Notes: a model not told the origin generated them from the letters alone. A stretch of 64,000 nucleotides of DNA from an uncultured Bacteroidota bacterium (GCA_903831265.1 CAIKXD010000174.1:44064-108063), one strand, 5' to 3'; positions 1,635-46,755 are shown, counted from the stretch's first letter. Made by a program: numbers and translations.

Positions 1635-1687
1635 TAACAATAAATATGTTGGCACATCATATTGTTAAACAAATAAATAACAACAAA

Positions 1688-5809: not shown

Positions 5810-5832
5810 TAAAATTAAATACAAGTATTGTT

Positions 5833-11689: not shown

Positions 11690-11728
11690 TACTTTGCTTT
11701 TTATTGAAGAAGTGTTAATCGTGTTTAT

Positions 11729-14953: not shown

Positions 14954-15014
14954 AAGTGGTTGTTTTTAAGGGGTGTGATTAATTACGTTTATTATTGGTG
15001 TGATGTTAGTATGA

Positions 15015-15728: not shown

Positions 15729-15730
15729 GT

Positions 15731-16564
15731 TTAGTTAAACAAAACACTTCCTCCGATAGAAGATTTTATAGGGTTTAAAATCATGGTAGGAATTTGAGCA
15801 TCATTTGTAATAATTTGACGTTCATCTGTACCTGCTAATATCTCAGGGAAACCCATTTCCTGACTATTTACGATTGCAATTAAATCGGCATCTTTGGCTG
15901 CCGCATAGGTTAAAAATTGTTTCACAAAATTACCTTTTTCATCGGCCATTTTAACATCAAACTCTATCTTATTATTTCTTAATTCGCTCTTAGCTAATGA
16001 TACATTATTATTGATTGCATTCACTAAAAAGGTATCCGACTCTTGAGGGTAGATGATATGCACTTTGCTGTTAAATACCTTTGCAATATTAATGGCAAGG
16101 CTTAATTTTTGTTTACTATCTTTAGATAAATCAAATGGTAAAACTAAATTATTATAACCGTCTCTAAAACCTCTTTCTTGCACAACTATAAATGGCACTG
16201 TACTGTGTGTAATTACCTTTACAGCATAACTGCCTGTAATATGTTGCATTCCTTTAACTCCGTGGGTGCCCATTATAATTAACTTAGCTTTTAAATCTGT
16301 AGCAGCCGCTCCAATATCATCAAAAATATTTCCTAACCGGGCCTCATAACTAACTTTTATACCTGTTTTTTGGGTTAGAATTTCAGATTGCTCTTTAAGC
16401 TTAACTTCAGCAGAAGCTTTTTCTTTTTCTTTACCAATAATATGTAACAACACAACCTCGGAATTAGCAATAGATTTACACAATCCAATGGCGTGCTCTA
16501 CAGCTGTATCTGCAACCTTTGTAAAATCAGTTGGAACAACTATGATAACTTTTTCTATGCTCAT
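15731..16564 (-). CDS. Universal stress protein (tandem UspA domains).
   Basis: 277 aa with two USP-like halves. G-x2-G-x9-G(S/T) ATP-binding-like motifs ([16 protein letters not shown]). Confidence 0.75.
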
Positions 16565-25700: not shown

Positions 25701-25795
25701 TGCCAGAAGGCACCTATTTTGTAGTTTTCACGGCTGACTCGCCCGAATGCGGTAAAGTAGATGAAAATCGTTGGATTGAACTAAGACGTAAATAA
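16775..25795 (+). CDS. Giant (3006 aa) SprB-like cell-surface adhesin. It has an N-terminal right-handed beta-helix region, a long array of SprB-type Ig-like repeats, an internal CBM4/9-like domain and a C-terminal type-B T9SS domain (gliding motility-associated CTD).
   Basis: Signal peptide. G-rich beta-helix repeats (GGGLY.., GGGIYMN, NTAVNGA) within the first ~370 aa. More than 25 repeats of ~75-80 aa with the conserved C..G...L....G..W..GETT.SI.V...G.Y.V....NGC pattern. C-terminus FSPDGNGVNDELII...IFNRWGNEVY...GEDLPEGTYFVVF matches TIGR04131-type CTD. sprF-like gene immediately downstream. Confidence 0.8.
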   Translation: MMLKDLHCKRDSGKSKFGSFRNLFSISVITLIGLIAPVKATNFTVSNTNDNGPGSFRAALVSANFDATATAGSPHVIDMTGVSGTIVLDSALADIRNHVSINGPVNNSLSVERNIAVASFSVLSIKPVGFAAITVQLNNLILTKGSSLTGGGLYVENTNLTINNCQITKNFVNNGLGGGLCTNNANVTINNTTIDYNLNLAGLGGGIYMNFGSLLMNNCTVFGNRAAIGGGLDKATIGTVIIKNCTFAFDTADDVAGGIYINLGSVEANNTIITGNTAVNGASAVFGNLASTNGHNLVDNPLGMNFTGNTTGNLIGLATNFVLSNELKNNGGVTPTVLPLACSAAIDAGTSVGATITDQRGFVRANFGTAYDIGAIEYSGPIVEDLNVCGTQTINIVASGSTNYRWYDAETGGNIILEGSNVLTVTVSSDTTFWVVDYTPDCESTIRVAVNVSQFSLAVPPVISANGNTSFCQGGSVSLNSTTSPDYVSYAWVPNGETTTSITAENSASYSVIITDINGCTAQSNLINVSANPLPIPVISPNGSTIICQGSGVVLTSNFTTGNVWSTGETTQSITVSAASTITLTVTDANGCIATSAPVEISIVPNAPPAPIITASGNLDICVGSTVTLTSSYVSGNIWSPNGEITQSIDVNAPGTYAVTFTDANGCSAISQPVTITFLPQPQTPTVNANGATTFCEGGSVVLDAQPATGNISWTPGNVLGGSLTVTASGSYFATLTDVNGCSVSSAPINVVVEENPVQPSINAFGPTTFCQGSNVTLFSSSNTNNLWSQANETSNTIVVSNAGLYTVTVTNVAGCSATSDPVEITVLTNPTAPIISANGPTTFCVGGTVTLTSDISNNIVWNTTETTSNINVSLPGAYSVITTDVNNCSSQSNVINVVVNNPGLASISGNNQFCVGGSTTLTAVNGSSFVWSPTGETTQSISVASPGIYSVTISGVNGCTSVSAPFLVTSFVSNPITVTPTGTVQICDNGAVTLTSSAASGNVWSPNNETTTSISVSTAGDYFVTSTDLNGCSTVSNTVTVVVLPAPQTPIIDPAGPIIQCGGSVVLDAGLIQGVTYLWNDNITTTQTNTVSQSGTYSVAVTSTNGCTSVSNPVSVSIEALPIVNLGNDVTQCGGTVTLNAGNQGATYLWSNGATTQTVVLNASASISVTVTNTCGSTTSNTVNVTINNLPTAAVISPAGPIELCNGSSQLLSSNANTGNVWSPNGETTQDITVSTAGSYFTTVTDANGCSAVSNIVVVSVSNPIAQVNIGNDVTQCGGTVTLNAGNPGSTYLWSNGLTNQTILVSTSGIYSVDVTNACGTVTSNSVNIVINTLPFAPIISPGGPVVFCQGNSVVLSSSELTGNVWSTGATTPSVVISNSGSYTVTFTDANGCTAVSAPIVVTEDFPLNAPNLGGPFVQCAGSLLLDAGNGIGSTTYQWSTGATTQTISVSQSGVYNVVLTNTCGTVQSTDAQVTINPIPAAPVITPLGQTTFCAGGSLILSSNIANNITWSTGETTQTITVTQGGVYSVAFNDGNNCSSSSSITVTVQNPPIATDLGGPFSQCGGSVTLDAANAGPGNLYLWNNNATSQVLTVQQSGTYFVTIANTCGSVQSSSAVVNILTVPPAPVITASGSTTICSNDFVTLTSDNQQNYLWSNNETTQSITVNQSGNYSVTFTAANGCSATSNVIPVNVQLPPTATDLAGPFTQCGGTITLDAGNANIGASYLWSNGETTQTIVVSASGNYSVQISNACGTVASTIANVTLFNTPNAPVVSANGVTNFCQGGSVVLTSNIANGIQWSNNESTQSITVSASGDYSVLFTDANGCTATSNIITVVVDAPLVAPNLGGPFTQCGGTITLDAGNASTNNNYLWSSGQVSQSINVNTSGNYFVTITNSCGSVTSTTAVVTINPLPQTPIISASGPLVFCQGGDVTLTSSSATDNLWSNGLTTPSITVNASGIFSVSVVDALGCSSTSLPTTVVVDEPLSTAITLGGPFTQCGGTITLDAGNANVGASYLWSNGATTQTISVSQSGNYSVVINNACGTVTSDTASVTISPAAQTPIITANGPATICQGDSIVLTSSEINNIQWTPGAATTPSITVNQSGVYTVTVDNGNGCTAVSQSFTVTLLNNITPVTLGQDITQCGGSVNVDAGAQIGATYVWTDLTGNNQIPGAQIANLTSSGTVFVVVSNQCNSETSDTINVLINPLPTTPLIQANGPTSFCVGDSVQLEVTNVQQAQNIIVNGQFDGGNSDFTTQYIYQNNLQPEGTTFVTSNASLNHPAFVGTGQGGVGNFLAVNGSSNGGQFIWKQSITVIPNQTYDISLFLASLVANNNSGSIQLRVDGVDVGPVMNCPGPVNTWVPYSNLWTAGASSSASVSLHSMNSASGGNDFAVDNIQMICTSCAGSLNYQWNTNEIGTSIYADTTGSYTVTLTDASGCSATSLPIDVIVQTPPTVNLGGPFTQCGGSVTLDAQNPGSTYLWSNGATTQTIAVSALGTTSITVTVNNTCGSFTSQPATVTILAAPSQATVTANGSTTFCQGDSVALFASAGASYLWSPNNEISQSIVVNQSGNYSVQVTAANGCTSVSNAIGITVLSGAGSQAQITANGPTEFCIGGSVLLSSNNPTGNQWSNGSNQQSITIFNAGTYILNVANSNGCSLGSDTVIVTTLFNPTAVITLSNSPQLCAGDSIILTVNENASYQWTQLLNNQSINIGTDSTITVDSAGTYTVIVTGANGCTTTAQSVSVSTAPAAQVPIITINGQLSCGAGSVELVATGGSNFQWSNGSNSSSITITQPGLFAVTSQNIFGCVATSDSVWIPQGLSNMQISLDALIYDNGFWNVRCPKGSDGQITAVVTNGQEPYTYAWATGETTQMISGLKAGEDNVYKVIVTDAFGCTVEGSTTLTEPPAALEKMPRGFSPDGNGVNDELIIPGIKVFVTNNVTIFNRWGNEVYNSEGPYQNDWLGRGKNGEDLPEGTYFVVFTADSPECGKVDENRWIELRRK
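18120..25230 (+). repeat. Intragenic tandem array of SprB-type Ig-like repeats (~225-240 nt each). Between ~20150 and ~24350 it is organised as a higher-order ~435-nt unit alternating two repeat subfamilies.
   Basis: Recurrent nucleotide blocks seen directly, for example ggtggtccttttacacaatgtggtggtac...ttagacgctggtaatgc at 21890, 22320, 22760 and 24160. Protein-level periodicity. Confidence 0.8.
23513..23977 (+). other. Non-repeat ~155-aa insert within the adhesin repeat array, a CBM4/9/22-like beta-sandwich (putative carbohydrate-binding module).
   Basis: Starts NGQFDGG..DF...Y and ends GGNDFAVDNIQM, like the NG.FE.G...W ... FY.DDV boundaries of CBM_4_9. It interrupts the otherwise regular repeat spacing. 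Confidence 0.4.
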
Positions 25796-25831
25796 TAATT
25801 TAAGAATATTTAGAATTTCAATATATATCAC

Positions 25832-26752
25832 ATGAAAAAGCTAATCATTGCAGCATCCTTAATCATTTCAAGTTTGGGCTTGAAAGCACAACAGGATATT
25901 ATGCTTAGTCAATATATGTTTAATGGATTGTTCCTCAATCCTGCATATGCTGGCAGTCATAAGTACGTAAGTGCTACCTTACTTCATCGTAATCAATGGA
26001 CAGGATGGGATGGAGCTCCCAAAACTAACATTATTGGGATTGATGGTCCTTTAAGAAAACAAACGATGGGTTGGGGTTTAATTTTTGCTAACGATAAAAT
26101 TGGGCCAACTACACAAAATGATATTATGGCCAATTACAGCTACCACCTAAAACTAGGAAAAGGAAAACTTTCGCTTGGTTTAAGAGCAGGAGCATCGGTT
26201 GTTTCAAGTAATTTGCAAGGTGTTAGCACTGTAGTTGGTGGCGATGAAGCTTTTGCAACGAATATCAAAAGTTCTTTTTTGCCTAAGTTTGGAACAGGAG
26301 CTTATTATTATACAAAAAAGTATTATGCTGGGGTTTCAATACCAACATTGATAGCTCACGATCCTGCTAAAAACTTTAATTTTGATTTGAACAAATCATC
26401 CGATTCAAGAAGACACTACTTTATTACAGGTGGTTATGTATTTGATTTAAGTGATATGATAAAACTTAAACCATCGGTATTGGTAAAATATCAAAAAGCT
26501 GCGCCCATACAAGCAGATATTAACTGCAATGTTCTTATCAATAATGTGTTTTGGATAGGAGCATCTTATAGAACCAATGCAGCAGTTATTGGTATTATAG
26601 AATATCAAATAAATCCTATGTTTAGAGTTGGTTATGCCTATGATTACACTACAAATGCTATCAATCGTTATTCATCAGGTTCACACGAAATTATGATTGG
26701 AATTGATTTAGGCCATGATATTATGAAAAGTAAAAACCCTCGTTATTTTTAG
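25832..26752 (+). CDS. sprF: T9SS membrane protein of the PorP/SprF family, cognate partner for the upstream type-B CTD adhesin.
   Basis: 306 aa. Signal peptide then QQDIMLSQYMFNGLFLNPAYAG, the PorP/SprF family N-terminal signature. Lies 37 nt downstream of the adhesin. Confidence 0.8.
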   Translation: MKKLIIAASLIISSLGLKAQQDIMLSQYMFNGLFLNPAYAGSHKYVSATLLHRNQWTGWDGAPKTNIIGIDGPLRKQTMGWGLIFANDKIGPTTQNDIMANYSYHLKLGKGKLSLGLRAGASVVSSNLQGVSTVVGGDEAFATNIKSSFLPKFGTGAYYYTKKYYAGVSIPTLIAHDPAKNFNFDLNKSSDSRRHYFITGGYVFDLSDMIKLKPSVLVKYQKAAPIQADINCNVLINNVFWIGASYRTNAAVIGIIEYQINPMFRVGYAYDYTTNAINRYSSGSHEIMIGIDLGHDIMKSKNPRYF

Positions 26753-26802
26753 TTTAATTTAAGCAATAAGGAGCATTATTATACCCACAGATAAACCGTA
26801 AA

Positions 26803-28713
26803 ATGAAGAAAAATATTACCACCTCTTGTTTAGTTTTGCTTTCGCTTTTTATTTTAAGCGGATGTTCCAAGATTTATACCGCCTTAGGCGACAAAAACAT
26901 GGAGCAACTTCAATATGTTAAAGCTGCAAAAAACTACGAAAAAGCAGTTTCTAAAAAGTCGGACAATGTTGCTCAAAAAAAACTGGCAAACACTTATCGA
27001 CTGATGAATGAAACGAAGAAGGGCGTTGATGCTTATGCTAAGGTAATTAATCAACCTAATGCCGAGCCAATCGATCGTTTTTATTATGCTCAAATGTTGA
27101 TTGCAAACAAAAAGCATAGCGAGGCAGCCACCATTTTAAGAGAATATATTAAATCCAACCCTGGTGATAAAATGGCCGAAAATATGTTGAAATCATGCGA
27201 AGCTCCAGAAGCGTTTATGAAGGACACTGCAAAATATATCGTAACCAATGCTAAAATTGGAAATGTAACGGAGTTTTATGGTCCAGTGCAATACAAAGAT
27301 GGCTTAGTTATTAGTGCAAGTATAGATGGTAAAGGAAAAGATAAAGTTCCACAAACGGGAAAATCTTATTACAAATTGTATTTTACAAAAAAGGATAAAA
27401 GTGGTTCTTATTCTGCACCTGAAAAAATTAATGGAAATATCAATAAAAACAAATTGCACACTGCATCAGCAACTTACTCTAAGGATGGTAGCGTAGTTTA
27501 TTATACAACAAGCAATACCGATGGCTTATCTAACGCTGAATTACTTGAAAATGTTATTGGTCTAAAAATTAATAAAGATACCATTGCAAATGGTTCATAC
27601 CTTAAAGCAGCAGAGTTTCCATACAATAGTAAATCTTACTCTGTAGGACATCCTGCATTAACAGCAGATAGTAAAACTATGTATTTTATTTCAGACATGC
27701 CAGGTGGTATGGGCGGTACAGATGTTTATGAAACTAAATGGGAGGGTGGCAAATGGGCGCAACCAACAAACTTAGGTGAGAAAATTAATAGCGCTGGTAA
27801 TGAAATGTATCCTTTTGTTGATAGCTTAGGAAATTTATATTTTTCATCAAATGGACATAAGAGTTTAGGAGGTTTAGATATTTATAAAGCAATGAAAACT
27901 GGCAATAGTTGGTCACAAATTGAAAATTTAAACTATCCCATTAATAGCTCGAGAGATGATTTTGGATTTATGATGTATGCCGATAGCAAAACGGGTTATT
28001 TAAGTAGTAACAGAGAAGGAACCGATAAAATTTACGAGTTTATTTTGCAAGCTTCTAAGGTTAACATTGGAGGTAAAATAGTAAGTAAGGTTGATGGAAA
28101 ACCTATTGCGGGTGCTAAAATTGCTGTTACTGATAAAGCTAGAAATATAACAGATACAATTGTTTCGGCTGAGGATGGAAGTTACGCTTATGCATTAGCT
28201 CCAAACACAGATTTTGATGTTACTGTATCAAAAGATGGATTTTTTAGCCAATCCGAAGATATCACAACAGTTAATCAAGTAGGAGATATTACTAAAGATT
28301 TCTCATTGGAAGAACTAGTAAAAGGAAGGCCTGTTGTAATTGACCAAGTCGATGACAAAGGGGTAAGACCAATATTTTATGATTATGATAAATCTGAAAT
28401 CAGACCCGATGCATTTGAGGCATTAAATAAATTAGTAAAAAGATTAAAAGACAACCCTAAAGTAACTATAGAGTTAAGCTCTCACACAGATTGCAGAGGC
28501 ACAGACAACTACAATCAAGATCTTTCATTTAGAAGAGCTAAAAGCGCAAAAAACTATATTGTATCTAAAGGAATCAAAGCTAATAGAATAAAAACTAAAG
28601 GTTATGGTGAAAGCCAACCTGTGAATAAATGCGTTGATGGTATTCTTTGCAACGACGATGAATACCAAGCAAACAGAAGAACAGAGTTCAAGGTAATTGA
28701 AATCGACAAATAA
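26803..28713 (+). CDS. OmpA-family lipoprotein with TPR-like N-terminal region, PD40/WD40-like beta-propeller repeats, a carboxypeptidase-regulatory-like domain and a C-terminal OmpA peptidoglycan-binding domain.
   Basis: Lipobox LFILSGC. C-terminal OmpA motifs (TDCRGTDNYNQDLSFRRAKSAKNYIV...NRRTEF). The typical PorP/SprF-OmpA gene pair. Confidence 0.8.
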   Translation: MKKNITTSCLVLLSLFILSGCSKIYTALGDKNMEQLQYVKAAKNYEKAVSKKSDNVAQKKLANTYRLMNETKKGVDAYAKVINQPNAEPIDRFYYAQMLIANKKHSEAATILREYIKSNPGDKMAENMLKSCEAPEAFMKDTAKYIVTNAKIGNVTEFYGPVQYKDGLVISASIDGKGKDKVPQTGKSYYKLYFTKKDKSGSYSAPEKINGNINKNKLHTASATYSKDGSVVYYTTSNTDGLSNAELLENVIGLKINKDTIANGSYLKAAEFPYNSKSYSVGHPALTADSKTMYFISDMPGGMGGTDVYETKWEGGKWAQPTNLGEKINSAGNEMYPFVDSLGNLYFSSNGHKSLGGLDIYKAMKTGNSWSQIENLNYPINSSRDDFGFMMYADSKTGYLSSNREGTDKIYEFILQASKVNIGGKIVSKVDGKPIAGAKIAVTDKARNITDTIVSAEDGSYAYALAPNTDFDVTVSKDGFFSQSEDITTVNQVGDITKDFSLEELVKGRPVVIDQVDDKGVRPIFYDYDKSEIRPDAFEALNKLVKRLKDNPKVTIELSSHTDCRGTDNYNQDLSFRRAKSAKNYIVSKGIKANRIKTKGYGESQPVNKCVDGILCNDDEYQANRRTEFKVIEIDK

Positions 28714-29184: not shown

Positions 29185-31122
29185 TTGGACGGTTCGGTCA
29201 GTTGCCCTTTGGGCATGGTTACAGGATTTATTTTTCATGGCTTTGGGCCACAATCATTCGTAGAGTTATCTGTTATAGGTGTGCTATTGATTTTCTCGGC
29301 TATAGTTGCAGCTGCAGAAGTCTCTTTCTTTTCTTTAGCACCGGCCGATTATGAACAACTTAAGCAAGATAATAGCACCCACGCACAAAAATTAATTCAG
29401 TTATTAGATAAACCTAAAAGCCTTATAGCCACTATTGTTATGAGTCATAATTTGGTGAATATTGGCGTGGTAATTATTTCTGAAATGCTTTTTAAACAAC
29501 ACTTCAACTTTAGTGATAGTCCGTTAACAGGATTTCTTATTAAAGTTGTGGTAGTAACTTTCGTAATTCTACTTATTGGTGAGGTGATTCCAAAGATTTA
29601 TGCAGCAAAAAATCCACGTGATTTAGCTTTAAAAATGGTGTATATTTTTGATATAGTTCAAAGATTGCTGACTCCGTTTGTTTGGATCCTTGTGGGTATT
29701 GCCGGTGCATTTGATAAGCGAATAAAACAAAAAACACCCGATTTGTCGGTAGATCAACTATCTCAAGCCCTTGAGCTTACTTCAAGTGAACACACGCCCG
29801 AAGAAGAAAGGAAAATCTTACAAGGAATTGTGGAGTTTGGAAATACAGAAGTAAGTCAGATTATGAAACCAAGAATTGATGTGGTTGCTTTTGATGAAAA
29901 TACTCCGTTTTTAGAAGTTATTGACCTCATAGTAAAAAATGGTTTCTCTCGAGTGCCAATTTATAGCGAAACTTTGGATAAAGTTGTTGGGGTGCTTTTT
30001 ATTAAAGATCTTATTGCTCATCTTGACAAAGGCAATGATTTTAACTGGCAAAGTTTATTAAGGCCCGCATTTTTTGTTCCTGAAAGCAAAAAGATTGATA
30101 ATTTAATGAAAGAATTTCAGAGCAAAAAAATACATCTGGCTATTGTTGTAGATGAGTATGGAGGGACTAACGGAATTGTAACACTCGAAGATGTTATTGA
30201 AGAAGTTATAGGTGAAATTAATGATGAGTTTGACGTTGAGGAGTTGGTTTATTCGAAGCTTGACGAAAACAATTATATTTTTGAAGCAAAAATTCCTTTA
30301 AATGATTTATATAGGGTGTTGGATATTGATGGTGAGGTTTTTGAAGATAAAAAAGGAGAATCAGACACATTAGCGGGATTTATTTTAGAATTGAGTGGAA
30401 AAATCCCTGTAAAAAATGAAAAAATTTCCTTCGACAATTATGTTTTTACGGTTGAATCGGTTGATAAAAGAAGGATAAAACGAATTAAACTTACAATACT
30501 TAATCACAACCAGCAAGGTACTTTTCATGATGGAGGAAAAATAATCCCGAGTGTTTTACTGCCATTCTTATTATTGATTTCTATTTTATTTACTTCTTGC
30601 GATGAAGATTATACACCAAAACCAAGGGGCTATTTTAGAATAGATTTGCCTACAAATACGTATCAAACGATTGCAACAAATTGCCCTTTTTCTTTTGAAT
30701 ACTCAAAATACGCCAACGCAAATGTATACGAGGGCAGCCAAATTGAAAACTGCTGGTATAATATCGATTACCCTAAGCTCAACGCCACAATACATTTAAG
30801 TTATTCACCTTTACAAGGAAAAGATGACTTAGAAAAACAATTAAGCAACTCAAGAACCCTAGTTTATAAGCATACTGTTAAAGCAGATGGTATTGAGGAA
30901 ATTCCAATCAGCTATGAATCTAAAAGTGTGTATGGATTAATTTACAATTTAAGTGGCAACAGTGCCTCTCAGGTACAGTTTTATTTAACAGACAGTACCA
31001 AGCATTTTTTAAGGTGTGCCTTGTATTTTAACTCAAGTCCCAATGCCGATTCTATTGCACCTGTATTAAATTACATTAGTAAGGATATTGATAGGTTTAT
31101 AGAAACTTTTCGCTGGCAATAA
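29185..31122 (+). CDS. gldE: GldE (DUF21-CBS pair-CorC/HlyC gliding motility protein) continuing in-frame, with no stop codon, into a GldD-like lipoprotein moiety. This is an apparent GldE-GldD fusion ORF (645 aa).
   Basis: N-terminal 4-TM DUF21. CBS pair (VVAFDENTPF...; HLAIVVDEYGGTNGIVTLEDVIEEVIGEI). CorC_HlyC region (FVFTVESVDKRRIKRIKLTIL). Then a hydrophobic stretch IIPSVLLPFLLLISILFTSC with LFTSC lipobox and a GldD-like mature part (DEDYTPKPRGYFRIDLPTNTY...). No in-frame stop between the two moieties. Confidence 0.7.
   Translation: MDGSVSCPLGMVTGFIFHGFGPQSFVELSVIGVLLIFSAIVAAAEVSFFSLAPADYEQLKQDNSTHAQKLIQLLDKPKSLIATIVMSHNLVNIGVVIISEMLFKQHFNFSDSPLTGFLIKVVVVTFVILLIGEVIPKIYAAKNPRDLALKMVYIFDIVQRLLTPFVWILVGIAGAFDKRIKQKTPDLSVDQLSQALELTSSEHTPEEERKILQGIVEFGNTEVSQIMKPRIDVVAFDENTPFLEVIDLIVKNGFSRVPIYSETLDKVVGVLFIKDLIAHLDKGNDFNWQSLLRPAFFVPESKKIDNLMKEFQSKKIHLAIVVDEYGGTNGIVTLEDVIEEVIGEINDEFDVEELVYSKLDENNYIFEAKIPLNDLYRVLDIDGEVFEDKKGESDTLAGFILELSGKIPVKNEKISFDNYVFTVESVDKRRIKRIKLTILNHNQQGTFHDGGKIIPSVLLPFLLLISILFTSCDEDYTPKPRGYFRIDLPTNTYQTIATNCPFSFEYSKYANANVYEGSQIENCWYNIDYPKLNATIHLSYSPLQGKDDLEKQLSNSRTLVYKHTVKADGIEEIPISYESKSVYGLIYNLSGNSASQVQFYLTDSTKHFLRCALYFNSSPNADSIAPVLNYISKDIDRFIETFRWQ
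30553..30600 (+). other. gldD: Internal signal-peptide-like hydrophobic segment ending in a lipobox (L-F-T-S-C, Cys codon at 30598..30600), marking the start of the GldD-like moiety.
   Basis: SVLLPFLLLISILFTSC|DED read directly from the translation. No upstream in-frame ATG/GTG start nearby; the only in-frame TTG would give a 9-residue signal. Confidence 0.55.
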
Positions 31123-38692: not shown

Positions 38693-40252
38693 ATGAAATA
38701 CCTTTCGCACCTACCCATCCTGCTCTTGTTGTGTGTGCTTGCTCTTACAGGCATAAACACCTACAAAACATACGGTACACAATGGGATGAATATTTGCAA
38801 AGAAATATGGGAAGGGTTACCTACAATTATCTTGTTGAAGGAAACGACTCTTTATTAATTTTAAATGGCCGCGATTATGGCATTGTGGTGGAACTTCCTT
38901 TGTATGTACTTGAAAAAAAATTGGCACCTAATCAGCCAGCAGCTTCTACTTTTATTCGGCATTTGGCTTGTTATTTCTTGTTTTGTGTGGGCGTGTTCTT
39001 TTTTTATCTTACCATACTTAAATTAAGGTTCTCTAATTGGTGGGCATTTTTTGGTGCACTCATGTTGGTGCTCAGCCCCCGCATTTATGGGCATGCCTTT
39101 ATCAATTCAAAAGATGTGCCGCTGATGGTGTTTTATATCATAGCTTATTATGCACTTTTGTGTTTTATCGAAAAGCCTGATATTAAAAGAAGCTTTTGTT
39201 TGGCCTTAAGCACTGCTTTGCTCATTGATACCCGAATTACAGGTGTAATTATTGTGCCAATTACCATCCTTTTTTTCTTTCTTTTCGAGTATCAAAAAAG
39301 CAATTTATCTGTTAAAGAATTATTGAATATTTCATTCCTTAAAAAAATGAAATACTACTTTATTTTTAGCGCTTTGTTAGTGTATTTCTTTTGGCCTTAT
39401 TTATGGTTGAATCCAATCAAAAACTTTTTAGTGGCTTTTTTAAATATGAGTCACTATCGTTGGAAAGGCTATAACTTGTTGTTTGGCGATTTTATATTCT
39501 CTTTTGAAACACCTTGGTATTTTTCATTATCATGGATTGCAATCACCACGCCTTTGCTTTATTTATTTTTATATTTTGTTGGAGTTACAGGCATCGTTTA
39601 CCAAATTGTTCGTTTAAAAAAGCAAATATTTAAGCATAAAGAACTACTGGAAAAATTAATGGCATTGAGCCTTTTTATGTTGCCATTATTGGCTATAATT
39701 ATTTTAAAATCGGTATTGTATGATACATGGAGGCATGTGTATTTTGTGTACCCTTTTTTATTAATTGTGGCCTTATATGGTGGCCAATTGGTTTATCAGA
39801 AGCTAAAAACTACCATGGTAAAATGGACTGTGGTAATACTATTTGTGGCATTGTTGATGTTTGAATTGATTAAAATGCAAAACGCATTTCCTCATGAATA
39901 CGTTTATTTTAATGAGTTGGTAAGCGATAAAAATGACAACATTCGATATAATTATGACATGGAGTATTGGGGAGCATCTTTTAGAGCAGGCTTAGAAAAA
40001 ATTTTAGAATCTGATAAAAGAGATACCATAAAAGTTACCGGAAATTGCTATCCAGTTTATAGCAATTATGTATTGCTAAAACACATGGATAAAAACTGTA
40101 GATTGCAATATGTTTTAGAAGAAAAGGATGCCGATTATTATTTAACTAATTATCGCTATAAACCGGGCGATCACGATGGTTTTCTGGACAAAAAAGTTTA
40201 CGATATTCAATATAGAAATTCTGAAATTTTAGGGGTTTATAAGTTAAGGTAA
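38693..40252 (+). CDS. Polytopic membrane protein, putative GT-C fold glycosyltransferase (PMT/ArnT/GT39-83-like).
   Basis: 519 aa. About 11 TM helices in the N-terminal 400 aa. DE motif (TQWDEY) in the first extracytoplasmic loop. Soluble C-terminal domain. Confidence 0.4.
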   Translation: MKYLSHLPILLLLCVLALTGINTYKTYGTQWDEYLQRNMGRVTYNYLVEGNDSLLILNGRDYGIVVELPLYVLEKKLAPNQPAASTFIRHLACYFLFCVGVFFFYLTILKLRFSNWWAFFGALMLVLSPRIYGHAFINSKDVPLMVFYIIAYYALLCFIEKPDIKRSFCLALSTALLIDTRITGVIIVPITILFFFLFEYQKSNLSVKELLNISFLKKMKYYFIFSALLVYFFWPYLWLNPIKNFLVAFLNMSHYRWKGYNLLFGDFIFSFETPWYFSLSWIAITTPLLYLFLYFVGVTGIVYQIVRLKKQIFKHKELLEKLMALSLFMLPLLAIIILKSVLYDTWRHVYFVYPFLLIVALYGGQLVYQKLKTTMVKWTVVILFVALLMFELIKMQNAFPHEYVYFNELVSDKNDNIRYNYDMEYWGASFRAGLEKILESDKRDTIKVTGNCYPVYSNYVLLKHMDKNCRLQYVLEEKDADYYLTNYRYKPGDHDGFLDKKVYDIQYRNSEILGVYKLR

Positions 40253-40279
40253 AATTAGGATTTTAAGGAAGTGTTTAAT

Positions 40280-40419
40280 AAGGAATGATTAGTATGGCAC
40301 GAGTTTGAAAACTCGCGCCAGTATTACACGAGTTTGATGGGCATAAGTAAAATGATTGAAAGGCACGTTTAAAAGGAATGATTAGCATGGCACGAGTTTG
40401 AAAACTCGCGCCAGTATTA
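40280..40419 (+). repeat. Two copies of a 47-bp element (40280..40326 and 40373..40419, 46/47 identical), each containing a 9-bp-stem hairpin TGGCACGAG-tttgaaaa-CTCGCGCCA. A third partial copy of CACGAGTTTG lies at 40327.
   Basis: Seen directly in the 346-bp intergenic region upstream of the pentaheme cytochrome gene. Confidence 0.7.
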
Positions 40420-40598
40420 ATTGCCAAGAATGAAATAATTGATATTCGTGATTTTAAAAATTTGCGTCACCATAAACAGTATTCGTTTTCACTCATCGAT
40501 TACAATCATAATTTCATCAAAATAAACATTCCATTGCCTTTATTTGTTTGTTTTCAAAATTATAAGATATACATTTACACATTATATTTTTATATGGT

Positions 40599-42548
40599 AT
40601 GAAAATTACGCGTTTTTCGGTGATTGTTTTTATTTCTATTACTGTGTTTGTATTGTCAATTTTTGCAGCCAAGCAAAATAAAGCAACTTCCAGATATCAT
40701 AGTAATAAAGAGTTGGCAGCATTTAAAATGCAGGTAGGGCCTATTGGACCAGGGGAGTATTTCTTGCCCTCATCGCGCTGTGCTGGGTGCCATGGCAAAG
40801 ATTCATTAGGGTGGGCCAATGTGACAGAAGATTTGGTGGATGTAAATTTGTACGATCGTTGGTCAGCCTCTATGATGGGAATGTCGGCAAAAGATCCTTT
40901 ATGGAGAGCAAAGGTAAGTCATGAAAAACTTGTAAACCCTGCGCACGGTATGGATTTAGAAGATAAATGTACTAGTTGTCACGCCCCAATGGGTCATTAT
41001 AACGCTCATTATAACGGGGCTTCACATTACCTAATTTCCGATTTTGATAATGATTCATTAGGCATTGATGGCGTTTCTTGCGCTGGTTGCCATACTATTA
41101 GTCCAAATGGCGTTGGCACTACTTTTAGTGGAGAAATACTTTATGATACTACACGACATATTTACGGACCTTTTGTAAATCCTATGATTGGTCCTATGCA
41201 ACTTTACACAGGATACGTACCAATGTTTAGCCAGCACATTTCTGATTCAAAGGTTTGTGCCTCATGCCATACCCTAATTACAAATACAGCAGATTTAAAT
41301 GGAAATGCAACAGGGGGTGAATTTGTAGAGCAAGCCACTTACCACGAGTATAAAAATTCTATCTATAGTCAAAATAATACTACTTGCCAAAATTGCCATA
41401 TGGCTCGAATTAGCGATCCAATTATGATTGCGAATGGGTATTTGTCTTTAACCCCGCGTACACCATTCAATCAACATTCGTTTGCAGGAGCTAATCAGTT
41501 TATGCTTAAGCTAATGAAAGCCAATAAAAACACCTTAGGGATTGATATTCCTGATTTTAAATTTGATACGACCTTGATTGCCACTAATTTGATGCTTAAA
41601 GAAAAATCAGTAAATTTAACTTTGCATTTTGATAGTGTAGCCAATGATAGTGCTTATTTTAGAGTGAAGTTATTGAATAAAGCTGGGCATAAATTCCCTT
41701 CAGGTTACCCATCCAGAAGAGCCATACTCCAGTTTGTTGTTCAAGACAATAACAGTGATACGGTTTTTAAATCAGGTATTTTCCATAGCGATTTTAGTGT
41801 GGCCGGAGAGAATCCAGCCTTTGAACCGCATCACAATGTAATTAATCAAAGTGGCATCTCTCAAATTTATGAAATGGTTATGGGGGATGTAAACTCGCAA
41901 TATACTTCAGTTTTAGAACGTTCAGCCGTTTTGTTAAAAGATAACCGACTAACACCAACAGGTTTTACAACATCACACCCATCTTATGATACTGTAAAGG
42001 TGTCGTTGGATGCTCTGTCGGACCCAGATTTCAATAAAATAGCAGGTGTAGAAGGTTCTGGTTCGGATGAGGTTCATTTTCATGTTCCTATAGCTGGTAT
42101 TACATCTAACATTAACGCAACAGCAAGAATTATTTATCAAACTTTACCACCTAAATTTGTAGCAGAGTTATTTAGCTTTAACAGTGCACCTATCGATACT
42201 TTTAGAAATATGTTTAACGCTGCCGATAAAACACCTGTTATTGCAAATGCCGATAGTTTAATGAACCTACAATTGGTTACTTTTACAGGAAAGCAATTGA
42301 ATAAAAAGGATGATGTAAAAGTTTTCCCATCAATAACAGTAGAAGGTAAAATAAATGTTAATGCCTATGGCAGTATGGAAATTAAACAAATTGATGTTTT
42401 TAATAGCAACGGAAAAACTGTAGTAAGCAAAGGCATAAGCAATGGTTCAAAAACAGAAATTTTAGTATTGCCCGATTCTCCAGGAGTTTACATCATTAGA
42501 ATAAGGTGCAACAAAAACGATGTTTACAGAAAAGTAATTAAACAATAA
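40599..42548 (+). CDS. Secreted pentaheme c-type cytochrome with a C-terminal T9SS (type-A Por) sorting domain.
   Basis: Signal peptide. Five CxxCH motifs (CAGCHG, CTSCHA, CAGCHT, CASCHT, CQNCHM). C-terminal KVFPSITVEG...IDVFNSNGKTV...PGVYIIRI...RKVIKQ. Confidence 0.7.
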   Translation: MKITRFSVIVFISITVFVLSIFAAKQNKATSRYHSNKELAAFKMQVGPIGPGEYFLPSSRCAGCHGKDSLGWANVTEDLVDVNLYDRWSASMMGMSAKDPLWRAKVSHEKLVNPAHGMDLEDKCTSCHAPMGHYNAHYNGASHYLISDFDNDSLGIDGVSCAGCHTISPNGVGTTFSGEILYDTTRHIYGPFVNPMIGPMQLYTGYVPMFSQHISDSKVCASCHTLITNTADLNGNATGGEFVEQATYHEYKNSIYSQNNTTCQNCHMARISDPIMIANGYLSLTPRTPFNQHSFAGANQFMLKLMKANKNTLGIDIPDFKFDTTLIATNLMLKEKSVNLTLHFDSVANDSAYFRVKLLNKAGHKFPSGYPSRRAILQFVVQDNNSDTVFKSGIFHSDFSVAGENPAFEPHHNVINQSGISQIYEMVMGDVNSQYTSVLERSAVLLKDNRLTPTGFTTSHPSYDTVKVSLDALSDPDFNKIAGVEGSGSDEVHFHVPIAGITSNINATARIIYQTLPPKFVAELFSFNSAPIDTFRNMFNAADKTPVIANADSLMNLQLVTFTGKQLNKKDDVKVFPSITVEGKINVNAYGSMEIKQIDVFNSNGKTVVSKGISNGSKTEILVLPDSPGVYIIRIRCNKNDVYRKVIKQ

Positions 42549-42605
42549 TTAAAAAATACAAATATTATTCACCAATCTAAATAAGCTATATAATATATTC
42601 TTTAC

Positions 42606-45600
42606 ATGAAAACAACAATTAATTTTAAGTCTCTTATAGGGACAACCGCTTTGATGATGGGCATGCTCTCTTCACAGGCTCAGGTTTTATCATTTACTAA
42701 CTCTAACAGTCAACTGCCCAACAATGCAGTAAACTACAGAAGTGGCTGTGCAGTTTCTGTGGCCGATGTAAACAACGATGGTTTAGACGACATTATTCGT
42801 TTAGATCAGAGCAATGACATTAACCTTGAAATTCAGAATCTGAATGGAGGTTATACTAATTACTTTTTAGGTTCATTCACAGGCGGCAATGCTTGGGCAA
42901 TGACAGTAGCCGATTTAGATCAAAATGGTATTAAAGATGTTGTGGCAGGTATGGGCTCTACAGGTTCAATAGCATTAATCTCATTTAGCGGAGGTACCTA
43001 TACGGCTAACATAAGTGTGTTGCAAGGAAGTAATTTCTTTTGGCAAAATATTTCTGTAGGTGATTTTAATAATGATGGCTGGCAAGATATTTTTGGTTGC
43101 GATGACGTTAACTGGTCTAAGTTATATATCAATAACGGTAATGGTACATTTAGAAGAATGGCCAATGCGATTCAGAGCCTTACAATAGGTTTAGGCAATA
43201 TTACTTTAACAGTACAAAACAATTTGAGCTTTACACCAGGCCAATCCGTTTATGTTACACACAACAGCGATAACTACATGACAGGGCAAGTAGTATCGTA
43301 TACGGGAAGTACTTTAGTAGTAAATGCTACTGCCCTTGTTGGAGGTGGCACTTACGGTTCTTGGTCTATAGATCAAAATACGGTAATTAACTTTATTACT
43401 CATCCGGGCACATGGGGTACAACCGGAGATCCTAATAACTCAGGTAACTATGGTACTGTTTGGACAGATTTTGACAGCGATGGCGATTTAGATTTTTACA
43501 TTGCTAAATGTCGTCAAAGTAGCTCTGACCCTAACGATTTAAGAAGAATTGATGAGCTTTTTATTAATGACGGTACTTATAAGTTTAAAGAAGCAGCTGC
43601 CGAAAGAGGTGTTGCTAATGGATGGCAAACTTGGACCGCTAGTTTTGGTGATATAGATAATGATGGTGATTTTGATATTGCTGCCATAAACAACGACCAT
43701 ACTTCTCAAATATTTGAAAATGATGGAACAGGACATTATACTGAATTAACCACAGCAAACATTAGCACGAGTGGTATTTATCCATTGGAATCGCAATTTG
43801 AGGATTTTGATAATGATGGTTATATTGACTTATTGGTTACTGGTGATGATGATTATATTTATTACAAAAATAACGGAGACAAAACATTTACAAGAATCAA
43901 TGCGCTTTTTTCAACCAATGGTGTAATGTCTTTTGCCACTGGAGATTTAAACCACGATGGTTTTGTTGATGTTTATGCTAGTTTGGGCGATATTTATAAC
44001 AATCCATCAGGTACATTTGATGATATTATGTATTTAAATAATGGCAATACGGTAAATCATTTTATAACTTTTGATTTGGAAGGTACAGCTTCAAGTAATG
44101 ATGCTATTGGAACCAATGTAGTTATTTATGGCCCTTGGGGAGTTCAAAGACGTGAAGTGCGCTCTGGCGAAAGTTACGGAACATGCAATTCATCTATGTT
44201 GCATTTTGGTTTAGGAATTAATCAAACAGTAGATTCAGCCACTATTATTTGGAATTCTGGTGCGGTACAACATTTATACAATTTAGAAGCAGATCAGTTT
44301 GTTAAGGCAATCGAAGGCGGTTGTTTAATCACAGGCAACACCATTGGTGGTCCACAAGCTATATGCAATGGACAAAGCACAACTTTAACAGCAGCACCTG
44401 GGTTTAGTTCTTATTTATGGAGCAATGGTAGCACAGGTACTTCAATTACTACTTCAGTAGCCGAAAGTTATTCTGTAATTATAACAGATGCTAACGGATG
44501 CAGCAGTATTTCACCAACCATAACTTTGGCAGTAGATCCAATTGAAATCCCAACAATTTTAGCAGTAGGTGAAAGCACTTTCTGCCAAGGAAATTCAATT
44601 TCATTAACTTCTTCTCCGGGCAGCTCATACGCTTGGTCGAATGGTGCTACCACACAATCAGTAAATATAACACAATCGGGAACTTATACTGTTGAAGTAT
44701 TGGGAACATGTCAAACATTTACTTCAGCTGCCATAGAGGTAACTGTTTTTCCAGCTCCAGCGCCATCGGGTACAGGAGGTTCGGTAAATAACTCTGGTTC
44801 GGTAACGCTAACTGCATCTGGCAATAGCTTAACATGGTACGATGACGCTGCTGGCACCAATGCATTGGGTACAGGGCCATTGTTTAACACTCCTATAATA
44901 TCTACAAGCACCACTTATTATGTGCAGGATACTTACACTTATGGTGGAGGACTCGAATACACAGGATCTCATCATCATAGTGGAACATCAATGTACAGTG
45001 GTAATACAACCAATGCCTCTTTGATTTTTGATGCTTATGAAGCGTTTACATTAAAAACAGTAAAGGTGTATACCGATACTCCTGGCGACCGTTTAATTGT
45101 ATTAACAGATGCTACTAATAATGTTATTCAAAGTTTAATGGTGAATATCCCAATAGACTCTTCAATTGTTACTTTGAATTTTGCTGTTCCAGCGGGTACA
45201 GGTTACAAATTAGGCACAGATGCAGCTCAAAATACGATCCTTTGGGGTAATCCTGGTCCACGTTTAAAAAGAATGCAAGGTGCTGCAGTTACTTATCCAT
45301 ATGTGGTAAATAATTTAGTTTCAATTACCAATTCAACTCAAGGTTTAAATGTATATTACTATTTTTTTAATTGGGAAATTGAAAAAACCAGCACGGTGTG
45401 TACAAGTGTTCTAGTGCCTGTTTTGGCTGATGTTGTTACTGGAATAAACAATGCTAACAATCAAGAGAATATTCAATTATTTCCAAACCCGGCAACCGAT
45501 AAAATTACAGTAACTTCAGGTAGCACAATTAATAGTAACGTACTCGTAAATATTGTTGATGTTGCTGGTAGAGTGGCTCAAACCGCAAGCTTCAATAATC

Positions 45601-45713
45601 TTACAGCAAATGGCCAACAAACCATTGATATTAGTAAGTTAGCTAAAGGCGTTTATTTTGTAAAAATAAATTCGGCCAACAGCGAAATGGTAGAGAAATT
45701 GGTGGTGAGATAA
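42606..45713 (+). CDS. FG-GAP repeat / ASPIC-UnbV (CRTAC1-like) beta-propeller protein with SprB-type Ig-like repeats and a C-terminal T9SS sorting domain.
   Basis: Multiple VADVNNDGLDDI / DFDNDGYIDL FG-GAP Ca-binding-like repeats. UnbV_ASPIC-like GTNVVIYGPWGVQRREVRSGESYG...LHFGLG. Two Ig-like repeats (C.GQSTTLTA...YLWSNGSTG..I...ANGCSS). C-terminal LFPNPATDKITV...IVDVAGRV...GVYFVKI...KLVVR. Confidence 0.7.
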   Translation: MKTTINFKSLIGTTALMMGMLSSQAQVLSFTNSNSQLPNNAVNYRSGCAVSVADVNNDGLDDIIRLDQSNDINLEIQNLNGGYTNYFLGSFTGGNAWAMTVADLDQNGIKDVVAGMGSTGSIALISFSGGTYTANISVLQGSNFFWQNISVGDFNNDGWQDIFGCDDVNWSKLYINNGNGTFRRMANAIQSLTIGLGNITLTVQNNLSFTPGQSVYVTHNSDNYMTGQVVSYTGSTLVVNATALVGGGTYGSWSIDQNTVINFITHPGTWGTTGDPNNSGNYGTVWTDFDSDGDLDFYIAKCRQSSSDPNDLRRIDELFINDGTYKFKEAAAERGVANGWQTWTASFGDIDNDGDFDIAAINNDHTSQIFENDGTGHYTELTTANISTSGIYPLESQFEDFDNDGYIDLLVTGDDDYIYYKNNGDKTFTRINALFSTNGVMSFATGDLNHDGFVDVYASLGDIYNNPSGTFDDIMYLNNGNTVNHFITFDLEGTASSNDAIGTNVVIYGPWGVQRREVRSGESYGTCNSSMLHFGLGINQTVDSATIIWNSGAVQHLYNLEADQFVKAIEGGCLITGNTIGGPQAICNGQSTTLTAAPGFSSYLWSNGSTGTSITTSVAESYSVIITDANGCSSISPTITLAVDPIEIPTILAVGESTFCQGNSISLTSSPGSSYAWSNGATTQSVNITQSGTYTVEVLGTCQTFTSAAIEVTVFPAPAPSGTGGSVNNSGSVTLTASGNSLTWYDDAAGTNALGTGPLFNTPIISTSTTYYVQDTYTYGGGLEYTGSHHHSGTSMYSGNTTNASLIFDAYEAFTLKTVKVYTDTPGDRLIVLTDATNNVIQSLMVNIPIDSSIVTLNFAVPAGTGYKLGTDAAQNTILWGNPGPRLKRMQGAAVTYPYVVNNLVSITNSTQGLNVYYYFFNWEIEKTSTVCTSVLVPVLADVVTGINNANNQENIQLFPNPATDKITVTSGSTINSNVLVNIVDVAGRVAQTASFNNLTANGQQTIDISKLAKGVYFVKINSANSEMVEKLVVR

Positions 45714-45736
45714 TCACAGAATATCAAATAAAAATA

Positions 45737-45769
45737 AGCCTCTAAATTAATTTTTAGGGGCTTTTTTTA
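45737..45769 (+). terminator. Rho-independent terminator after the FG-GAP protein gene.
   Basis: AGCCTCTAAA-ttaattt-TTAGGGGCT hairpin followed by TTTTTTTATT. Confidence 0.65.
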
Positions 45770-45859
45770 TTGTCATATCTATAATTTTAATGCTCATACA
45801 TTGGCAGGTGCTTATCAGTCATGCTCAGAATGCGCGCGCCAGAATTGGAAATTGTTATA

Positions 45860-45982
45860 CCAATGTGATTTATAAATTATGCCAATAATTTAAAATCTTA
45901 CATTGGTAAATGCCGATCGGAAATAAGTTTGGGACAAATGCCGTGAAACTAATTTGGACCATTACTTATTTCACATCGGTAT
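45860..45982 (+). repeat. 123-bp direct repeat, copy 1 (about 97% identical to copy 2 at 47208..47330). It is internally dyad-rich (CCAATGT..ACATTGG, palindrome CCGATCGG, GTGAAA..TTTCAC, threefold AATGCC).
   Basis: Direct comparison of the two stretches shows 4 mismatches in 123 nt. Confidence 0.85.
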
Positions 45983-46110
45983 TACATTTTTTGGAATACA
46001 AATTGTCACTAGCGTTTTGATGTTGTAAAATAAAAGTTCTTTCAAGTAGTGTCAATATTGAGTTTTAAAGGTTTTTAGTTTGGAAACGATTTAAACTTCA
46101 AAAAAAAATT

Positions 46111-46755
46111 CTAAAAATTAAACAAATCACACACCTCCATACCATCTTGTAAGTGAAAAGCATGAATTCCCGCTTTTTGTGCACCTTCAATATGTTGTGG
46201 CGAGTCATCAATAAATAAAGTAGTTGATGGATTTAAATTGTTATCAGATAACACCTTCTCAAAAATTTCAAGATCGGGTTTACGCATCTTTATTTCATGA
46301 CTCAAATAAACCTTTTGAAAAATAGACTTGAAATTATTCCAGCCATATTCGCCTTCTATAGCGGCCGAAAATGCTTTTTCGTGAATAATATTGGTGTTGC
46401 TTAATAAATACAAAGGTTTGTGCAGCTGTAACTTTTTTAGCATCTCCACTCTGTTTGAAGGCATTTGCAGCAACATACTGTTCCAACATGCGTCAATAGT
46501 GTTGTCGTTTAAATTAATGCCCGAAAGGGCCCTTAATTCATCTCTAAATTTAGTTTCGCTAATTAAACCCTTCTCTAAATTATCAAACAAATTATTTTGC
46601 TTGGCTTTAGAAAATAATTCATCAAAGTTTTTAATACCTTGTTTTTCAAACGCATCGCGGGTTTTATGGTAGTCAATATCAATAATTACCGCTCCAAAAT
46701 CGAAAATAATAGCATCAAAATGCTTGTTTTTTAGCTCAGAATGAAGAAGTTCCAT
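46111..46755 (-). CDS. HAD-superfamily hydrolase (subfamily IA-like phosphatase).
   Basis: DxD motif IIFDFGAVIIDIDY (motif I). S/T motif II LSNTN. K...DD motif IV (FIDDSPQHIEGA). Confidence 0.75.
   Translation of the reverse strand: MELLHSELKNKHFDAIIFDFGAVIIDIDYHKTRDAFEKQGIKNFDELFSKAKQNNLFDNLEKGLISETKFRDELRALSGINLNDNTIDACWNSMLLQMPSNRVEMLKKLQLHKPLYLLSNTNIIHEKAFSAAIEGEYGWNNFKSIFQKVYLSHEIKMRKPDLEIFEKVLSDNNLNPSTTLFIDDSPQHIEGAQKAGIHAFHLQDGMEVCDLFNF

Follow-up and report, generated by a model that had tools for sequence, protein, structure and literature searches.

Multiheme cytochromes at the cell surface form the core of extracellular electron transfer (EET) in Proteobacteria and Desulfobacterota. 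The cargo described for the type IX secretion system (T9SS) consists mainly of hydrolases, adhesins and motility proteins. Here we report a gene pair of an uncultured Bacteroidota bacterium that appears to bring the two together: a pentaheme c-type cytochrome with a T9SS sorting domain, followed by a CRTAC1-like protein with a sorting domain of its own. The pair lies in a stretch of 64,000 nucleotides (GCA_903831265.1 CAIKXD010000174.1:44064-108063), called the window below; positions are counted from its first letter.

Several described systems come close to this cytochrome. One is the penta-heme cytochrome c552 of Thermochromatium tepidum (5ZE8), which is soluble and periplasmic, has ~385 residues and has been assigned no function. 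MccSep, or ExtKL, of Geobacter sulfurreducens (9WT8; NF040886) is a tetrameric periplasmic polysulfide reductase built of a five-heme cap and an Ig-like stem, and depends on selenocysteine 325 (Sec325), which a stem loop sets beside the His/Cys239-ligated heme 2, and on the heme ligand Cys239 itself (PMC13510729). A family named PHC has been proposed for ExtKL, GSU2801 and the cytochromes of cable bacteria (PMC11976967), and a relative, PtdA, occurs in a cluster of porin and multiheme genes in other phyla (bioRxiv 10.1101/2023.11.21.568154). An evolutionary relationship with T. tepidum c552, and hemes arranged in a similar way, were reported for archaeal extracellular cytochrome nanowires (AvECN; Baquero et al. 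2023, as cited in PMC11976967). Their extracellular subunits are tetraheme and polymerize, whereas the window protein is pentaheme.

MtrC and OmcA of Shewanella resemble what is proposed here in surface location, in multiheme electron transfer and in the export of a folded holo-protein by a dedicated secretion system. However, they are ten-heme lipoproteins with staggered-cross hemes that are exported by the type II secretion system (T2SS) and dock on the MtrAB porin conduit. Within Bacteroidota, a 2024 survey predicted extracellular multi-heme cytochromes in organisms from wastewater, without the T9SS, the present family or the pairing with CRTAC1 (PMC11495043). In the literature searched, we found no paper connecting the T9SS with multiheme cytochromes. 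The original prediction for this DNA, made by a model from the sequence, had called a T9SS-delivered cytochrome in Bacteroidota essentially undescribed; the statement holds, within the literature searched, for the link to the T9SS and was slightly overstated in view of the 2024 survey. The PHC fold family, T9SS type A tails and CRTAC1-like proteins are all known. What appears to be new relative to the searched literature is a holo-multiheme cytochrome as predicted T9SS cargo, conserved in many Bacteroidota and tied to a CRTAC1-like partner.

The pentaheme cytochrome and its sorting domain

The cytochrome open reading frame (ORF) (40599-42548, plus strand) encodes 649 residues. Five CxxCH heme motifs were read from the sequence (C61, C124, C161, C220 and C263), and the sole further Cys, C638, is located in the C-terminal tail. 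The N-terminus has the features of a signal for the general secretory (Sec) pathway (residues 1 to ~24, 40599-40670): a positive n-region, MKITR, is followed by a 19-residue hydrophobic core ending in IFA|AK, where cleavage is predicted. A pentaheme alpha-helical cap with all five motifs follows (residues ~50-298, 40746-41490), and then an Ig-like beta-sandwich stem with a large conserved insertion (residues ~300-562, 41496-42284). A flexible linker (564-569) leads to the C-terminal domain (CTD; residues ~570-649, 42306-42548).

Homologs of this protein are numerous. More than 3,800 significant ones were found among 8,000 candidates scored from a database of 5.8 billion proteins, and in an exhaustive HMMER scan of cluster representatives, 2,556 clusters reached E <= 1e-3, of which 538 reached E <= 1e-30. 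The best 120 homologs were full-length, 53-98% identical and derived from Bacteroidia or from metagenome-assembled genomes (MAGs) of Bacteroidota. All five CxxCH motifs were invariant in 20 close homologs, in 75 diverse homologs and in 81 sequences comprising the window protein and those of 80 Bacteroidota genome loci, and nearly all full-length cluster representatives contained exactly five. Other residues invariant in the 75 diverse members were H293, H364, H411, M200, D99-P100, E244-Q245, E250, R450 and P453, together with a loop G363-H364-x-x-P367-x-x-x-P371-x-R373. Judged by this conservation, the 649-residue protein is a real, conserved pentaheme c-type cytochrome, as originally predicted, and the heme motifs were retained in every alignment inspected.

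An AlphaFold2 (AF2) model based on an alignment of 75 diverse homologs had a predicted local distance difference test score (pLDDT) of 92.2 and a predicted template modelling score (pTM) of 0.80, whereas an earlier alignment of 20 close homologs had given an unusable model (pLDDT 50). In the model, residues 2-26 form a helix and residues 27-32 a low-confidence linker. By a wide margin, the top structural match was T. tepidum c552 (5ZE8, Foldseek E=1e-17). A family profile search detected the same protein (E=2e-12) as well as MccSep (9WT8, E=1e-7), and in the profile alignment the five heme motifs corresponded to those of both proteins one-to-one and in order. The stem loops were also aligned, NHAGHSIPDGUP of MccSep and PHAMPTGAP of 5ZE8 being matched by NKAGHKFPSGYP in the window protein. 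This loop is part of a longer invariant stretch, N360-x-x-G363-H364-K-F-P367-S-G-Y370-P371-S-R373-R, and the stem also holds the invariant H411 and a motif K447-D-N-R450-x-x-P453. The feature that characterizes PHC stems, an Ig-like beta-sandwich sending an (G)H-x-x-P-x-G-x-P loop toward the hemes, is thus present. We conclude that the window cytochrome belongs to the PHC superfamily, which includes ExtKL, GSU2801, the PHCs of cable bacteria and PtdA.

Within this superfamily, the window protein is distinct from both solved relatives. Compared to c552, with which it shares the fold and the order of the five heme motifs, it is ~140 residues longer, mostly through a conserved insertion in the stem (~395-490, with the invariant H411 and KDNRxxP), and it also differs in its T9SS CTD and in having a CRTAC1-like partner that is conserved. 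The order of hemes, the stem loop and the family are shared with MccSep, but the functional residues of MccSep have no counterpart here. The position of Sec325 is occupied by Tyr370, with Y, F, I or H found there in 150 representatives. Residues 1-575 contain no Cys apart from those of the CxxCH motifs, and the stretch aligned with Cys239 reads G-x-x-F-x-E-Q. The substrate-binding R83 of MccSep aligned with M92/M93, although with low confidence. Since the Sec position is Tyr, no Cys is available for heme ligation and R83 aligns with Met, the window cytochrome is not an MccSep-type enzyme; its score against the MccSep-type equivalog NF040886 of NCBIfam was 30.3 bits (cutoff 250).

It is not MtrC/OmcA-like either. 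Matches to generic cytochrome hidden Markov models (HMMs) were weak or borderline (MtrC/MtrF domains II-IV, 30.1 bits, cutoff 30; cytochrome c7, 25.8 bits, cutoff 24.8), and the OmcA/MtrC family model TIGR03507 gave 20.6 bits (cutoff 209). The window protein has five hemes rather than ten, a different fold and a T9SS tail; neither a lipobox as lipoprotein signal nor a linked MtrAB-type conduit was found. The kinship with surface EET cytochromes (OmcA/MtrC, NrfB and c554) that had been implied at first is therefore not borne out: HMM matches were below threshold or borderline, and the fold is that of c552 and MccSep, whose characterized members are periplasmic.

The C-terminal tail was matched by TIGR04183 at 35.4 bits with the full protein and 40.4 bits with the last 110 residues (cutoff 23). 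In addition, 75 of 79 homologs from Bacteroidota genomes matched this model at E <= 0.01, with tails that are only ~26% identical on average, and a fold comparison showed the CTD beta-sandwich seen in translocon-bound substrates. A tail HMM built locally detected the domain in all 120 close homologs and in 43 of the 150 cluster representatives, chiefly those nearest to the window protein. It detected none in 119 distant homologs, a set retrieved with a profile of more distant members that lack the CTD; the few organism names among them were from Chloroflexota, Acidobacteriota, Aquificota and a deltaproteobacterial MAG. The tagged clade is nested within a broad untagged family. These sequence and fold matches indicate that the tail is a bona fide T9SS type A CTD, in agreement with the first reading of this sequence.

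The CRTAC1-like partner and conservation of the gene pair

The second gene (42606-45713, plus strand, 1035 residues) begins 57 nt past the stop codon of the cytochrome gene, and was characterized with Pfam, NCBIfam and profile searches. The Pfam matches were FG-GAP_3 (five stretches, 112 bits), UnbV_ASPIC (63), Ig_7 (53) and Por_Secre_tail (61.9). Its predicted layout consists of a signal peptide (SQA|Q), a Ca2+-binding FG-GAP propeller with UnbV/ASPIC (~30-570), Ig-like repeats (~575-780), a beta-rich domain without family assignment (~780-950) and a T9SS type A CTD (958-1035). Profile searches matched human CRTAC1 (9ETN, E=7e-18), the Ig repeats of GhpA (E=2e-123) and T9SS CTDs. The partner is thus a true homolog of CRTAC1 with its own T9SS tail, as had been predicted; the repeats, which had been taken for the SprB type, match Ig_7 and GhpA instead. 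GhpA is a T9SS-secreted grappling-hook protein. Homology with human CRTAC1 covers the propeller and UnbV region, to which the partner adds the GhpA-like Ig repeats, the beta-rich domain and the CTD. The residues that are invariant in the partner belong mainly to the DxDxDGxxD calcium loops of its propeller and are structural for the most part, so that it resembles a binding or scaffold protein more than an obvious enzyme.

To our knowledge, no biochemical function is known for any bacterial member of the CRTAC1 family. The pairing with a cytochrome gene provides a first concrete lead on what these bacterial proteins do. CRTAC1-family genes were also found between genes for homologs of the c-heme protein hydrazine synthase (HZS) in Planctomycetota outside the anammox group (PMC12758564), implying that the pairing of a CRTAC1-like propeller with c-type hemes is not a one-off.

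A scan of species-representative genomes yielded at least 592 related loci. The best 80, for which taxonomy was checked, all came from Bacteroidota MAGs (Bacteroidia, Saprospiraceae, Lewinellaceae, Flavobacteriales, Crocinitomicaceae and Chitinophagales) sampled from lakes, groundwater, soil and activated sludge. A CRTAC1-like gene was the immediate neighbour of the cytochrome gene in 36 of 84 related Bacteroidota loci, at position +1 in 33 of these, and no rival neighbour family occurred in more than seven loci. The association was strongest among close relatives: where the cytochrome core (residues 1-575) was at least 50% identical, 24 of 25 loci had the CRTAC1-like neighbour. In three loci with cytochromes 84%, 70% and 55% identical to that of the window, the next gene combined FG-GAP, UnbV, Ig_7 and CTD and all other neighbours were different. 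Gaps between same-strand pairs ranged from 14 to 176 nt. In six loci (L028, L031, L034, L040, L063 and L068) the partner was inverted and adjacency was nevertheless kept, which favours a functional linkage over mere inheritance of an operon. In the window, the two genes look like one transcription unit, since the only terminator-like site on the plus strand within 40150-46200 (45736-45763), a hairpin followed by a T-run (45736-45773), is located 23 nt past the stop codon of the partner gene.

The original prediction had extended the unit to a third gene, a GT-C-like membrane glycosyltransferase upstream of the cytochrome. The pair is conserved, but the trio can be ruled out: no GT-C homolog was found near any of 85 related loci. 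The upstream gene encodes a 519-residue membrane protein with a weak match to PMT_2 (25.2 bits, cutoff 26.1).

Other neighbours of the cytochrome gene varied. In unpaired Bacteroidota loci, they were related neither to each other nor to redox functions (recF-like and MORN-repeat-like genes by inspection, and a MOSC-domain protein confirmed by Pfam). Four relatives without a CTD, from Chloroflexota, Acidobacteriota, a deltaproteobacterial MAG and a metagenome contig, had no conserved partner and no respiratory operon, and their cytochrome genes stand alone. The window contains a single ORF with CxxCH motifs. Neither a porin-cytochrome conduit nor a second ORF with three or more CxxCH motifs was detected in the 64-kb window or in the flanks of the 85 Bacteroidota loci, which were scanned for up to 8-10 kb on each side as the contig allowed. 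Di-heme proteins occurred in a few of these loci; both of those checked (in L077) were of the di-heme peroxidase/MauG type.

In one locus (L024, 6149-11235), the partner was 75% identical to that of the window (83% in the propeller), whereas the cytochrome was only 47% identical overall and 50% in the core. Identities of the two proteins rise and fall together in the other loci, and this pair looks mosaic, as if one gene had been exchanged. In a close relative on a 4.36-Mb contig (L001), a 6706-residue FG-GAP/GEVED/Big_5/SprB protein is encoded ~6.6 kb upstream of the pair (1-3364, minus strand); these genomes seem to be rich in FG-GAP surface proteins.

Possible roles as electron relay, respiratory terminal or secreted enzyme

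Conservation counts gave exactly five candidate distal heme ligands: H293, H364, H411 and M200, which are invariant, and M93, which 93% of sequences retain. Among the cluster representatives of the family, neither CxxCK nor any other atypical heme motif was detected. Given five conserved candidate ligands and the absence of the catalytic residues of MccSep, all five hemes are probably six-coordinate and suited to electron transfer. For the same reason, namely conserved candidate ligands together with the lack of the catalytic Sec and Cys, the cytochrome is most likely a five-heme electron relay or capacitor rather than a small-molecule reductase.

Domain fusions in the wider family also bear on function. 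In three separate clusters at 50% identity, the pentaheme module is fused to the propeller of a glucose/sorbosone dehydrogenase (GSDH) of the pyrroloquinoline quinone (PQQ) type, and one of these clusters has in addition an F5/8 type C sugar-binding domain and a GlyGly-CTERM-like tail. Other members carry DUF642 with TSP3 and dockerin, dockerin alone, or a lipobox with Calx-beta or He_PIG, and one distant member is fused to a TauE/SafE membrane domain (distant members with such fusions were P0215, P0232, P0193, P0241, P0257, P0201, P0223 and P0234). Thus, the pentaheme module seems to recur in extracellular contexts and as a built-in electron acceptor. Extracellular heme domains pass on electrons from a catalytic domain in fungal cellobiose dehydrogenase, in the AA12 PQQ pyranose dehydrogenase with AA8 and in Cbp2D of Cellvibrio, and relatives of the window protein are likewise fused to GSDH/PQQ-type propellers and sugar-binding modules. 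However, the cytochrome domains of these secreted dehydrogenases have a single b- or c-type heme and unrelated folds, whereas the window protein has five hemes on a separate polypeptide. Since the FG-GAP propeller of the partner differs in fold from the PQQ propeller of GSDH, the fusions serve as an analogy and not as a true Rosetta-stone link.

Together, these observations suggest that in Bacteroidota an electron-carrying protein is placed at the cell surface or outside it by a secretion route with which cytochromes had not been associated before. We see an even chance that the two genes form a bicistronic module whose products, both T9SS type A cargo, act together outside the outer membrane in an extracellular electron relay. 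By analogy with established biology, Sec would export the apoprotein, which would acquire its five hemes and fold in the periplasm; the T9SS translocon would then recognize its CTD and transport the cytochrome across the outer membrane, after which removal of the CTD would release it or tie it to surface lipopolysaccharide. There, an extracellular redox partner, or a substrate bound to the propeller protein, could exchange electrons through the cytochrome with an external acceptor or donor, much as happens through the cytochrome domain of secreted quinohemoprotein or cellobiose dehydrogenases.

Several observations weigh against this extracellular relay. Both structurally solved relatives, c552 and MccSep, are periplasmic, and N-termini in the family have long hydrophobic cores (15-22 residues), and many of them show no clear AxA site for cleavage. 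A CRTAC1-like neighbour is missing in about half of the Bacteroidota homologs at greater distance (core 40-50% identical). The invariant Ca2+ loops of the partner point to binding and not to catalysis, and the GSDH fusions involve another propeller fold, as noted above. In addition, heme ligation, and hence the preference for a relay over an enzyme, is deduced from conservation counts and one low-confidence alignment, that of M92/M93 with R83.

If the relay exists as proposed, a pentaheme protein with covalently attached hemes would represent a new class of T9SS cargo, and the system would be able to carry cofactor-loaded electron-transfer proteins. A widespread and conserved version in Bacteroidota of lakes, groundwater and wastewater plants would widen the range of lineages thought to perform extracellular redox chemistry. 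There is also an annotation gap: such proteins are now labelled "hypothetical protein" or just "T9SS type A sorting domain-containing protein". The latter was the most specific name among the best 120 homologs, and both window proteins are present verbatim in public collections under the former, on a contig of 132.6 kb; the window itself is of the metagenome-contig type.

An alternative is that the cytochrome serves respiratory EET as a surface terminal reductase or oxidase, linking the quinone pool to insoluble Fe(III)/Mn(IV), humics or Fe(II) in the manner of MtrC/OmcA but exported by the T9SS rather than the T2SS; the propeller protein would then serve as an arm that binds the mineral or substrate. 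Five hemes in close spacing are typical of proteins that transfer electrons, and the sorting tag and the surface-type domains of relatives indicate a surface location. Electron exchange was also proposed for the predicted extracellular multi-heme proteins of Bacteroidota in a survey of wastewater MAGs (PMC11495043), and the relative PtdA is found with porin and multiheme genes in other phyla (bioRxiv 10.1101/2023.11.21.568154). We nevertheless regard this role, although plausible, as unlikely. No conduit, periplasmic multiheme carrier or second protein with at least three hemes was found in the window or in the flanks of the 85 loci, and the cytochrome gene stands alone in distant relatives. 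The fold differs from that of MtrC, and the MAGs that carry the gene are mostly from oxic or fluctuating freshwater and activated sludge. Moreover, type A cargo of the T9SS is often released instead of being anchored.

As another possibility, the cytochrome could be a secreted multiheme enzyme on the model of MccSep, NrfA or di-heme peroxidases. The sixth position of one of its hemes would then be open or labile, and a small molecule such as peroxide, polysulfide or an oxyanion of sulfur or nitrogen would be converted by this heme at the surface. The active site of MccSep lies between heme 2 and the stem loop that is aligned with the invariant GHKFPSGYP, and the invariant polar residues E244, Q245 and E250 occupy the place of the heme-ligating Cys239. 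Only 88-93% of sequences retain the fifth candidate ligand, M93 or H213; a sulfite-exporter-like TauE/SafE domain is joined to one relative, and di-heme peroxidase genes occur 4-6 kb away in three loci. Yet the catalytic residues of MccSep are absent, its R83 aligns with Met, the heme motifs are all of the ordinary CxxCH kind, and there is no obvious electron donor for a reductase outside the cell; such an enzyme therefore seems improbable. Two specific candidates were examined and rejected. Tyr370 as a catalytic stand-in for Sec was ruled out by the occurrence of F, I and H at the same position. The similarity of E-Q-x-x-x-x-E to the site of di-heme peroxidases is limited to three residues with different spacing, and matches to MauG had E > 0.2.

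Lastly, it is very unlikely that the protein is a periplasmic or inner-membrane-anchored cytochrome with an uncleaved N-terminal anchor and a CTD that is a relic or merely an Ig-like fold: the Pfam score for the sorting domain is just below its cutoff (25.9 bits, cutoff 27), and the N-termini and the solved relatives would agree with such a location, but the tail exceeds the NCBIfam cutoff, has the fold of substrate CTDs, is conserved despite the low identity given above, is confined to the phylum that owns the T9SS (0 of 119 distant homologs) and is matched by a strong CTD in the partner.

Cupredoxins are encoded near some of the related cytochromes. In L066, a 206-residue plastocyanin/azurin-type cupredoxin with a T9SS-like C-terminal tail is encoded ~1.3 kb downstream of the gene encoding the T9SS cytochrome (11257-11877, minus strand), and homologs are also present in L077 and L082, three loci in total. 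The presence of cupredoxins with such tails near a T9SS cytochrome hints that the T9SS exports further redox proteins. More broadly, Bacteroidota could export assembled multiheme cytochromes by the T9SS to build a hitherto unknown extracellular electron-transfer apparatus with the CRTAC1-like partner and possibly with T9SS-tagged cupredoxins. We consider this doubtful at present; the kinship in fold with archaeal cytochrome nanowires is the reason to envisage a surface-mounted or even polymeric form. If true, such an apparatus would give heterotrophs that abound in freshwater and activated sludge a connection to minerals, humics, oxygen species or other cells.

As a separate observation, L077 contains two tandem di-heme cytochrome c peroxidase/MauG genes (14277-16460), and L066 and L082 have ORFs of similar size with two CxxCH motifs at a matching position.

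Leader sequence and other features of the window

The cytochrome gene is separated from the upstream gene by a leader of 346 bp (40253-40598, plus strand). As originally noted, it contains duplicated hairpin elements: a 52-nt direct repeat is present at 40275-40326 and 40368-40419 (94% identical, 93 nt apart), and each copy folds into a hairpin GGCACGAGTTT-GA-AAACTCGCGCC (dG -15 kcal/mol, z ~-4); on the minus strand, the stability of this hairpin is higher (-17.6 kcal/mol, z -6.6). The repeat occurs a third time, incompletely, at 40320-40337. No Rfam family matched the leader, its plus strand showed neither an excess of sigma-70-like sites nor an exact Bacteroidota -7 motif, and the core of the repeat was absent from all 89 related loci. 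The leader is probably outside the conserved module, and the repeat may be a small local repeat element or a terminator remnant of the upstream gene.

Components of the T9SS itself were also detected in the window, including PorP/SprF (297 bits, cutoff 90.6), a member of the PorV/PorQ family (139.6 bits, cutoff 90), GldE (552 bits) and GldD (240 bits), along with a PorE-like protein that scored below its cutoff; their presence counts in favour of the T9SS assignment of the cytochrome tail. Core genes such as sprA and gldKLMN are not within the window. The matches to GldE and to the gliding lipoprotein GldD fall on a single ORF of 645 residues (29185-31122, plus strand). These are usually two adjacent genes, and the ORF represents either a true fusion or an artefact of ORF listing from overlapping genes. 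Upstream of it, the region 16775-28713 (plus strand) encodes a 3006-residue protein in which a choice-of-anchor Q domain is combined with a weak T9SS type B tail, then PorP/SprF, and then a PorE-like or CHU_0125-like protein with TPR, PD40, CarboxypepD_reg and OmpA domains; type B cargo with its own PorP is a typical arrangement. Near the start of the window (1646-6915, plus strand), the gene for the PorV/PorQ-family protein comes after that of a 1387-residue protein with a C-terminus weakly similar to the end of PorZ. Another T9SS type A cargo protein, of 613 residues, is encoded at 60524-62365 on the minus strand.

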